This document shows, piece after piece, positions 52,127 through 54,258 of a stretch of 64,000 nucleotides of DNA. The stretch covers positions 288,001 to 352,000 of IMG/VR virus record IMGVR_UViG_3300028591_000070. One strand, 5' to 3'. Within the stretch, counting starts at the first letter, position 1. Each line of letters starts with the position of its first letter. The notes below the pieces were generated by a model that worked only from the letters and a program-made list of their open reading frames with translations, was not told where the DNA came from and searched no databases. The stretch is from a virus (Duplodnaviria; Caudoviricetes). The position numbers and the translations under genes are program-made.

Positions 52127-53515
52127 TTAAAACTTTTTCTCCGTTTTTTGAGCCAACCAAGGTAATGCTTTTTTAATTGCAAAAACTTTCATAAGCTTTT
52201 GGCTAGCAATATTCAAATTATCTTTATATTCAGGTTTACTTGAAAGATAGAGTTTTTCTTCCTCAGCTAAAGCAATAGCATTTCTACACCAGAATGCAAC
52301 AAACTCTTCAAACATACGGAATGTAAGTTTACGATTTACTATTACTTTATTTCCAAAAACTGGAATATCTTTTTCATAAGCTTCAATAATAATTCCTAAA
52401 GCTGTATAAACACACTGCTTACCCCAATCACGGAACCATTTTGGAAGATTTGAATATTCTCTTTCTTTACATAATCCACCAAAAGCAGATTTAAGACGGT
52501 CCATGAACTGTTCCAAAGTAAGTTTAACTTCAAGTGATTCTACACGGTCTACGACTGCTGAGTCAATTTCATATAATTCAAGATTCGATACAAAAATAAC
52601 AGATGAATTGAAGATAAACTCACGAGGCATACCACCAGTTTTTTCAACTTCTTCTTCATTCTCTCTAAGCATTCCTTTAAATGTATATGCATCAACTGGA
52701 TTTATGCTTTCATTTATAACAACTTGGCCATCTCTTTTAACAACCAACTTATTTTCATCTAAAGCATCCTTGTCAAATTCAATTTTATAGCTTTCACCTA
52801 AATTATCCAATGTGGCATTCATGGCATTTAAGGTTCTTTTATTAGGTGAAACAAATACAGGTTTATGCAATGCCTCTGGGTCTAAAACACCTTTCATAAA
52901 GTTTGCTACTGGACTTCCTTTTCTAAGCATCTTATCATTATCATCTAAGACAATTACATAATTCTGTGAATACTTATAAAACCAAGGAGCAACTGTTGTA
53001 ATTGCATCTCCTAATTCACCACATTCATAATGATATTTTTTACCAGAGCTTGAAATATATTTTTTTAAAGTTTCAGTAACTGTATAAGTATTGTGATGAA
53101 TCATTCCATCTGTGTCAGTATACAAATGTTTTTCAGAGTCAATAGAAAATCCATAAACTGGCACATTTTCTGCAATCTTTCTAATAGAAGTACATTTTGT
53201 ATTTAAGTAAGGAAGATCATCCCCAACTTCAAAATCCTTAACAAATCTAGTTGTACAGTCATTTGGTTCAAAGAATGGTTCAACAGAGATAAGGTGTTCT
53301 CCGGCTAATTTCTTAGAAATACCATTATCAAACTGTATTCTATAAAGGTCATCTCTTTTTCTAATAAAGCCATTTATAGGAGTCCAAACACCGTTTTCAT
53401 CTTGGATTTTAATTTCATCATCTATCTTTACAAATTGGCCATCTTCAAACTTTACATTATATTTTTCTTCAAGTTTACTAAAAAGTTCGCCAATTGAGAG
53501 AGTTATAGTCTTCAT
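52127..53515 (-). CDS. intein fragment fused to the C-terminal part of a P-loop (AAA+-like) ATPase
   Basis: residues 1-142 Hint fold ending HHN; extein begins TYTV, has Walker B IVLDD and IFVSN; no Walker A GxxGxGK in the ORF. Confidence 0.8.
   Translation of the reverse strand: MKTITLSIGELFSKLEEKYNVKFEDGQFVKIDDEIKIQDENGVWTPINGFIRKRDDLYRIQFDNGISKKLAGEHLISVEPFFEPNDCTTRFVKDFEVGDDLPYLNTKCTSIRKIAENVPVYGFSIDSEKHLYTDTDGMIHHNTYTVTETLKKYISSSGKKYHYECGELGDAITTVAPWFYKYSQNYVIVLDDNDKMLRKGSPVANFMKGVLDPEALHKPVFVSPNKRTLNAMNATLDNLGESYKIEFDKDALDENKLVVKRDGQVVINESINPVDAYTFKGMLRENEEEVEKTGGMPREFIFNSSVIFVSNLELYEIDSAVVDRVESLEVKLTLEQFMDRLKSAFGGLCKEREYSNLPKWFRDWGKQCVYTALGIIIEAYEKDIPVFGNKVIVNRKLTFRMFEEFVAFWCRNAIALAEEEKLYLSSKPEYKDNLNIASQKLMKVFAIKKALPWLAQKTEKKF
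53090..53515 (-). mobile_element. mini-intein lacking block A (putative split intein C-fragment)
   Basis: block B AGEH, block F VYGFSIDSEKHLY, block G HHN/T; no N-terminal Cys/Ser block A. Confidence 0.8.
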
Positions 53516-53589
53516 ATAAGATAATTAGTATTTAAAATAAAAACGGCCAACTTTTGTTGGCCTTTGATTAGAGAGTAATGCGTTTAATA

Positions 53590-54258
53590 TTAGCTCAAAG
53601 CTTCTCGAATATCATCATAAGACATAGAATATTTCTTAGAAAGCTCTGCAATATTTCCTTTAAACTTTTCCTGTCCAAATTTTAATGCAAATTCGGCATC
53701 TTTTCTCGAGGCAGAACACTTTTTACAAATTGAGGCCATTGTTTCACCTTCTGATTTAAGGATAAACAATTTGCGCTGTTTCTCAGAGAGTTCTTTCAAT
53801 GTTTTTTCAAATGCTTGATTTATAATCTCTTTAGCCATAGGAGCGACTTCATTTGGAGTTTCAGCAGCTGCACTTTGGTCAAATAATGAAAGAGTTTCAC
53901 CTTCCTTCATAGTGATTTCAGCTGATACTTCATTATCATACTTTTTCTTGGCATGAGAAATAATATCTCTGTTCATTGAATTCCAATACCCATTAAGACG
54001 AATCCAGATTGTCCATGTTGCTGGTTTCTTAATGTCATTTAATCTTACGCCTGCCATTTGATTTTTGAACTTCTCATAAGCTGTTTGAGTCCATTCAGCA
54101 TATTCCTCTTTGTCAAACTTTCTGTTTGTGAGGGATAAAAGTTCATTATGTTTTTTGATTCGAAGTGGCTCATATCTGTTCCAAAGCTCGAGCTCAGCTT
54201 TTATGTCACCCTGTTGTGACTTTTCAACCAACTCATAGTCGGTATAAATTTTTTCCAT
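53590..54258 (-). CDS. sigma70-family RNA polymerase sigma factor
   Basis: ELVEKSQQGDIKAELELWNRY (region 1.2/2) and LSEKQRKLFILKSEGETMASI (region 4 HTH). Confidence 0.75.
   Translation of the reverse strand: MEKIYTDYELVEKSQQGDIKAELELWNRYEPLRIKKHNELLSLTNRKFDKEEYAEWTQTAYEKFKNQMAGVRLNDIKKPATWTIWIRLNGYWNSMNRDIISHAKKKYDNEVSAEITMKEGETLSLFDQSAAAETPNEVAPMAKEIINQAFEKTLKELSEKQRKLFILKSEGETMASICKKCSASRKDAEFALKFGQEKFKGNIAELSKKYSMSYDDIREALS

Follow-up and report, generated by a model that had tools for sequence, protein, structure and literature searches.

The minus-strand gene P0001, located at positions 52127 to 53515 of the window, most probably encodes the C half of a class-1 mini-intein that is naturally split in an atypical way and inserted in the Walker A loop of an AAA+ ATPase; this half would trans-splice with the product of a second gene, P0040. 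The window is the whole stretch of 64,000 nucleotides that was analysed (G000:C1:288001-352000), and it belongs to an IMG/VR virus record of 385,934 bp, a giant gut phage (jumbo phage) genome that was rated complete by CheckV and has a G+C content of 31.7%. The two genes of the split belong to the same genome, and each has a start and a stop codon of its own. The N piece of the intein has 16 aa and the C piece 142 aa, and blocks B, F and G are all on the C piece. The features of both genes and of the region in front of the C half are listed below; here and throughout the text, a slash in a protein motif marks the junction between intein and extein or the corresponding point in an uninterrupted protein.

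52127..53515 (-): C-half gene P0001, 462 aa; intein C piece and C-extein of an AAA+ ATPase
53090..53515 (-): C piece of the intein (residues 1-142), with His74 in block B, His130 in block F, His141 as the penultimate and Asn142 as the last residue
53087..53089 (-): codon for Thr143 (+1 residue), the Thr of Walker A at the GK/T junction and predicted nucleophile
52130..53086 (-): remaining part of the C-extein (residues 144-462), 42-45% identical to P0022 over residues 213-564 of the latter
53524..53529 (-): gene-start motif ACTAAT(T), located 14 nt ahead of the ATG of the C half
53545..53562 (-): terminator-like hairpin GGCCAAC/GTTGGCC (stem arms) with a T run; closes the upstream gene and separates the C half from it
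53590..54258 (-): upstream neighbour, 222 aa, weakly sigma-70 region 4-like; outside the split gene, given as context
G000:C1:96339-96776 = L001:1489-1926 (-): N-half gene P0040, 145 aa, outside the window; ends in GDPGVGK, Cys1 and 15 further residues

The original prediction, a note made from the letters of the window, had described this open reading frame (ORF) by the motifs AGEH, VYGFSID...H.Y, HHN/T, TYTV, VIVLDD and IFVSN, and each of them was located on the minus strand between 52127 and 53515. HHN/T corresponds to residues 140-143 of P0001, that is, to the penultimate His, the terminal Asn and Thr+1. Beyond this point, residues 144-462 of the C-extein comprise the Walker B-like VIVLDD, a long insert, a sensor-1-like FVSN and a helical C-terminal domain.

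The homologues of the C half fell into three groups. Proteins of the first group (459-550 aa) begin like P0001. Those of the second group (564-617 aa) have a long N-terminal region, are devoid of the 142-residue part and show an uninterrupted Walker A motif, GDPGIGK-T. The third group was formed by one protein of 770 aa, P0010, with both the long N-terminal region and the intein part. In the intein-free proteins P0022, P0024, P0027, P0034 and P0038 the sequence GIGK-T is read through with no insert. Residue 213 of P0022, the Thr after GK, aligns onto Thr143 of P0001, and in the comparison of P0022 with both halves the N half matched up to the Walker A region and the C half from residue 213, leaving neither gap nor overlap. 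Since the intein-free homologues run through GK/T, residues 1-142 of P0001 are an insertion exactly at the Walker A GK/T junction. The two proposals made for this site, insertion at that junction and Thr as the +1 residue, were thus borne out, the former by the intein-free alleles and the latter by the alignment of Thr143 with the Thr after GIGK.

Four intein-free homologues matched the Pfam family AAA (PF00004) with 23.7-25.8 bits, above the cut-off of 21.2. The halves of the window genome, taken singly, each fell below this cut-off; the N half carries GDPGVGK, and the Thr and VIVLDD belong to the C half. Because the nucleotide site is incomplete in each half alone, both genes should need to be expressed for ATPase activity to arise. 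In PHROGs, phrog_1250, with no function assigned, was matched both by the P0001 ORF and by the intein-free homologues. A search of the PDB with a profile of the intein-free homologues yielded weak matches to the P-loops of Cdc6 and RFC (E of at least 0.08), the Pfam search of the C-half protein gave weak unrelated matches and none to intein models, and tblastn with the C-half ORF gave no match among GenBank phages.

The partner had been expected as a separate gene ending in GxxGxGK-[CS] plus 10-35 residues, elsewhere in the genome and not within the window. The phage's own genome was queried with the N-terminal parts of P0010 and P0022, and a single match was obtained, the gene P0040 on the minus strand at G000:C1:96339-96776, which is the only such piece present. 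This gene and the C half are on one strand and in different transcription units, with 243,351 bp (243 kb) between them. The P0040 protein ends in GDPGVGK, followed by Cys130, equivalent to Cys1 of the intein, and 15 residues (CMDASELITIQVPDNF). Its GTG start codon stands five bases after the Shine-Dalgarno sequence AAAGGAGAG, and its 3' end has three consecutive TAA codons and a bidirectional terminator. By tblastn, a single N piece and a single C piece were detected in the genome and no uninterrupted paralogue, and an HMM scan of all six-frame ORFs of G000 revealed no second intein C piece of this family. The earlier statement that block A is absent from the C half holds for its first 16 residues, including Cys1, which are on the partner gene; the next strand and helix open the C-half ORF.

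An artefactual split, caused by misassembly or by a frameshift at the gene's 5' end, is considered to have negligible probability, and no point in support of it was found. In the frame of the C half just 3 codons are open upstream of the ATG, and thus there is no frameshifted N-extein in front of it; the missing part is intact elsewhere, with its own start, stops and terminator. The hairpin, the ACTAAT motif and the protein start are all kept in L009, L010 and L011, independent assemblies from three other samples, which indicates that the 5' end is not an assembly artefact. The C half's own ACTAAT (53529-53524) and the hairpin (53562-53545) were found where they had been described. A frameshifted continuation of the upstream gene, already rejected in the original prediction, is ruled out by the terminator, the 3 open codons and the conserved start. 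The same note had called the upstream gene a sigma gene; a match of its 222-aa product to the Pfam family Sigma70_r4_2 does exist, but at 18.1 bits it is below the cut-off of 25.7, and the label is tentative.

Throughout the genome, 82 of the 308 copies of ACTAAT closely precede a long ORF, in most cases at a fixed distance of 12 nt and in the form ACTAATT-N5-ATG, versus 4-13% for control hexamers of the same composition (n=8). ACTAAT is therefore no chance match but a real gene-start motif. The C half has a motif of the ACTAATT type, with 7 nt from the motif to the ATG. The N half comes second in a unit of two genes, the first of which bears the canonical ACTAATT-N5-ATG, so that both halves stand behind the same kind of start signal. 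Many genes preceded by ACTAATT-N5-ATG have no Shine-Dalgarno sequence; examples of the motif are found at 53524-53529 of the window and at L001:2364-2378 (-). The element may be a signal for translation or a promoter that gives near-leaderless transcripts.

The AF2 model of residues 1-150 of P0001 (pLDDT 88.5) has a Hint fold, and when the model of the C piece was compared with the PDB, the top 24 matches (E<=0.001) were inteins or intein-like domains. Residues 211-406 of the contiguous relative P0010 were folded with an alignment of 12 contiguous and 27 split relatives, and the resulting model (pLDDT 89.2, pTM 0.85) is that of a complete intein. In this model, the strand of the N piece (residues 17-23) has a pLDDT of 96 and the first strand of the C piece corresponds to residues 45-51; the split point is a low-confidence linker joining the two strands, whose length varies in the 12 contiguous relatives. 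As modelled, the split falls after the second strand and before the strand and helix that open the C piece, that is, at the S1 site, which is defined as the position after strand beta-2 (PMC13014065).

P0010 is the apparent sole fused form of the ATPase intein. It has Ser1 and Thr+1, and its catalytic residues are thus cysteine-less. The protein comes from a source without contigs and was not found in IMG/VR; since its sister records P0068 and P0069 are truncated or frameshifted, its contiguity is to be taken as apparent.

The best match, both in structure and in sequence, was the RadA intein of Pyrococcus horikoshii (PDB 4e2t/4e2u/2lqm). The P0010 model was superposed on 4e2u with Z 16.1 and rmsd 2.7 A over 155 residues, and on 4e2t_A with Z 15.9 and rmsd 2.2 A over 147 residues; in the latter superposition, the residue that follows GK coincides with residue 1 of the solved intein, and the Asn with its last residue. 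Unlike the intein of the window, this one is contiguous (cis-splicing) and archaeal. It is presumably inserted in a P-loop, with Thr at +1. The values for the other structures were Z 15.7 and rmsd 2.5 A for VidaL and Z 12.1 with 14% identity for PolB16. The search of PDB sequences with profile A5 retrieved the P. horikoshii RadA intein (E 9.7e-7), PolB16 OarG (E 4.7e-6) and VidaL (E 2.7e-4), and gp41-1 and Cat were also matched. PolB16 OarG was aligned from the first Met of its own C piece to the end; it is the only solved intein that aligns with this family across the whole C piece, and the best full-length sequence match among solved structures. With the narrow profile A3 the PolB16 match was marginal (E 0.056), and the broader A5 was needed.

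The association of the two halves and the splicing reaction that we infer would proceed in the following way. The N half would be made as a 129-aa N-extein ending in GDPGVGK, continued by the 16-residue intein N piece that starts with Cys1. The 16-residue strand would dock on the 142-residue C piece and complete the Hint fold, after which Cys1 would form a thioester with the carbonyl of the Walker A lysine. The N-extein would then pass to the hydroxyl of Thr+1, and the cyclisation of Asn142 would release an intein of 158 aa. Finally, an O-to-N shift would give an ATPase of 449 aa with an intact GDPGVGKT loop.

The complex predicted for the C piece (residues 1-170) and residues 100-145 of the N half had a score of 0.45, with 0.00 for the best control, and lends weak support to the pairing. 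In the calibration of this score, 58 of 80 solved complexes attained the mark, as did 2 of 110 mismatched pairs; just 7 of the 80 solved complexes, together with both mismatches that passed, had scores of 0.60 or less. The runs agreed in at least 61% of contacts and the pLDDT of the partner was at least 46. As split-intein complexes have already been solved, the pass may reflect likeness alone.

This prediction is compatible with binding and silent on chemistry, and it would also fit an arrangement in which the intein pieces bind but do not splice, the ATPase then consisting of two chains that the reassembled Hint domain joins non-covalently. Two substitutions point in the same direction, Ala at the Thr position of block B (AGEH in P0001) and Gly at the Asp position of block F. 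The former is the family norm, with Ala in 108 of 164 members. In block F, His130 is present (His in 143/164), and the Asp position is occupied by Asp in 118/164 and by Gly in 28/164, the subgroup of the window among the latter. The Asp of block F helps catalysis in some inteins; the VMA1 intein of Sce has Gly at the same position and splices efficiently. Such a non-covalent arrangement would not need catalytic residues, and the fact that Cys1, the block B His, the penultimate His, the terminal Asn and Thr+1 are invariant or nearly so across deep divergence counts against it. Moreover, a Hint domain of 158 aa left in the P-loop would probably block nucleotide binding. Binding with no splicing is accordingly regarded as unlikely, and trans-splicing as the preferred reading.

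The conservation of both halves was determined on their relatives. In a set of 20 C halves, with identities as low as 37%, His74, His130, Asn142 and Thr143 are invariant. The N halves form 27 clusters of 68-97% identity, all of about 145 aa and with the same 16-residue end piece, in which Cys1 and six other positions are invariant; Cys1 is invariant in the 13 N halves that were aligned. The dN/dS values were 0.15-0.25 for the intein C piece and 0.06-0.12 for the C-extein, and the N piece differed from that of a 90%-identical relative by 4 synonymous and 0 non-synonymous changes. Judged from these comparisons, both halves are under purifying selection, and they are kept in many independent assemblies. 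The reading of the C half as a pseudogene was rejected on account of the purifying selection. Both halves are on one contig in two further phages, P0055 and P0004 in a 366-kb NCBI assembly and P0070 and P0012 in a distant contig of 57.6 kb. The N pieces of distant relatives have 28-30 aa (P0070:219-246, P0071:229-257 and P0072:227-256), with an extra helix, and the lineage of the window has the trimmed form of 16 residues.

The same data bear on the possibility that the C half acts alone, either because the cyclisation of Asn142 frees the C-extein with no ligation or because the C half is a decaying remnant, the N half being functionally unrelated in both cases. Atypically split inteins, PolB16 for instance, are known to undergo C-terminal cleavage as a side reaction (PMC10189870), and the halves are distant and in different transcription units. 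However, a C-extein that does not carry the Walker A lysine cannot be an ATPase, purifying selection is seen on both halves, with no amino-acid change in the N piece beside the 4 synonymous ones, and in the P0004/P0055 and P0012/P0070 pairs the halves share a contig. A C half working alone is therefore held to be very improbable, and trans-splicing between P0040 and P0001 is retained.

Among natural inteins with an atypical split, N pieces of 15-37 aa are known, the split being at the S1 site (VidaL, PolB16) or at the S2 site (AceL TerL and GOS TerL) (PMC13014065; PMC10189870), and inteins in P-loops are well known (PMC4760082). PolB16 OarG, from a sheep gut metagenome (PMC10189870; PDB 8cpn/8cpo), resembles the intein of the window in its very short N piece (15 vs 16 aa), in the long C piece with blocks B, F and G, in the S1 split and in its origin from a gut viral metagenome. 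It is located in a PolB DNA polymerase, with Ser1/Ser+1 and a C piece of 168 aa with extra strands, whereas the intein of the window is in a Walker A loop, with Cys1/Thr+1 and a C piece of 142 aa. Splicing has been shown for PolB16, while the present intein is known from its sequence and from models. VidaL (PDB 6vgv) is likewise naturally split, with an N piece of 16 aa, at the S1 site and cysteine-dependent (PMC13014065). Its sequence match covers the C-terminal half of the C piece only, and it resides in another host protein. We take the host protein of VidaL to be UvsX. AceL TerL and GOS TerL are also natural and phage-derived, with short N pieces (25 aa and more) (PMC13014065), but they are split at S2, after helix alpha-1, their host is a terminase, and no sequence match between them and the intein of the window was seen. 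The intein of the window adds to the known S1-type atypically split inteins, and its additional features are the 243-kb separation of the halves and its membership of a large clade in which most inteins are split.

Dassa et al. 2009 (PMC2677866) described 'fractured genes', in which the two halves flank a free-standing homing endonuclease gene, and listed a single terminase intein whose long C part is devoid of motif N1 only. As in those cases, a phage enzyme gene is here broken by a split intein. In contrast to the fractured genes, the halves in G000 are 243 kb apart and no gene of that kind is beside either of them. The geometry of a fractured gene is found in the distant relative L006, the phage of the P0012/P0070 pair, where one gene of 338 aa on the opposite strand is all that lies between the halves. 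The product of this gene, P0073 (L006:3704-4720 (-)), consists of repeated helical modules, and a C-terminal D...E.Q pattern recalls PD-(D/E)xK or Vsr-like nucleases. P0073 had no match in Pfam, its only match in PHROGs was phrog_22677 (no function assigned), neither search returned an endonuclease, and no homologue was found in G000. As a guess, it could be a free-standing homing endonuclease.

A profile of the C piece retrieved 352 clusters (50% identity) at E<=0.001, of which 143 at E<=1e-10. Among the 164 clade members examined, the match starts within the first 25 residues in 142, so that the C piece opens the protein, and it is internal in 22, with junctions that are mostly GxGK/C. The +1 residue is T in 129/164 and S in 30/164. 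The block B His is present in 161/164 and the Asn in 159/164, and the counts for the block B His, the penultimate His and the Asn are all within 157-161. The exteins are diverse P-loop NTPases: ClpB-like AAA_2, AAA_5, AAA, RecA, DnaB, PhoH and SF2 helicases. Lys53, in the third or fourth strand of the C piece, is found in 162/164 members; it is as conserved as the catalytic His and Asn and is no classical block residue.

These data may reasonably be read as a large and apparently undescribed split clade of the S1 type whose homing site is the Walker A GK/[TS] junction in a variety of unrelated P-loop NTPases. Under this reading, the intein is split in some 87% of the examined clusters, with N pieces of 16-30 residues, and some members have Ser1 with Thr/Ser+1. 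In such members the catalytic residues would be cysteine-less. No description of this P-loop clade or of the ATPase intein was found in the literature searched.

Natural split inteins with a very short N piece are known from just a handful of cases (AceL TerL, GOS TerL, VidaL and PolB16). Their value lies in the short piece, which can be synthesised as a peptide and used to label proteins. According to a 2026 paper, further natural candidates of this kind are lacking (PMC13014065). The present case adds a well-supported Cys1/Thr+1 example of 16 residues and points to more than 100 related split inteins in P-loop enzymes; the clade, if true, would offer protein chemists a natural collection of split inteins with short N pieces, a type of which they report a shortage. 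In the jumbo phage studied here, an ATPase is kept in two pieces a quarter-megabase apart, and as an active enzyme would arise only where both pieces are made, the split could be a possible point of post-translational control.

A RecA-like gene is also interrupted by an atypically split intein, at another site, in a distant relative phage (L004:7357-9160 (-), and the same in L005). Its N half has 222 aa and ends in Cys plus 12 residues, which gives an N piece of 13 aa (residues 210-222). The C half, of 309 aa, opens with an intein piece of about 141 aa ending in SHN/T, and the two genes are 205 nt apart on the same strand. If active, this N piece of 13 aa would be shorter than the 15-aa record cited for PolB16.
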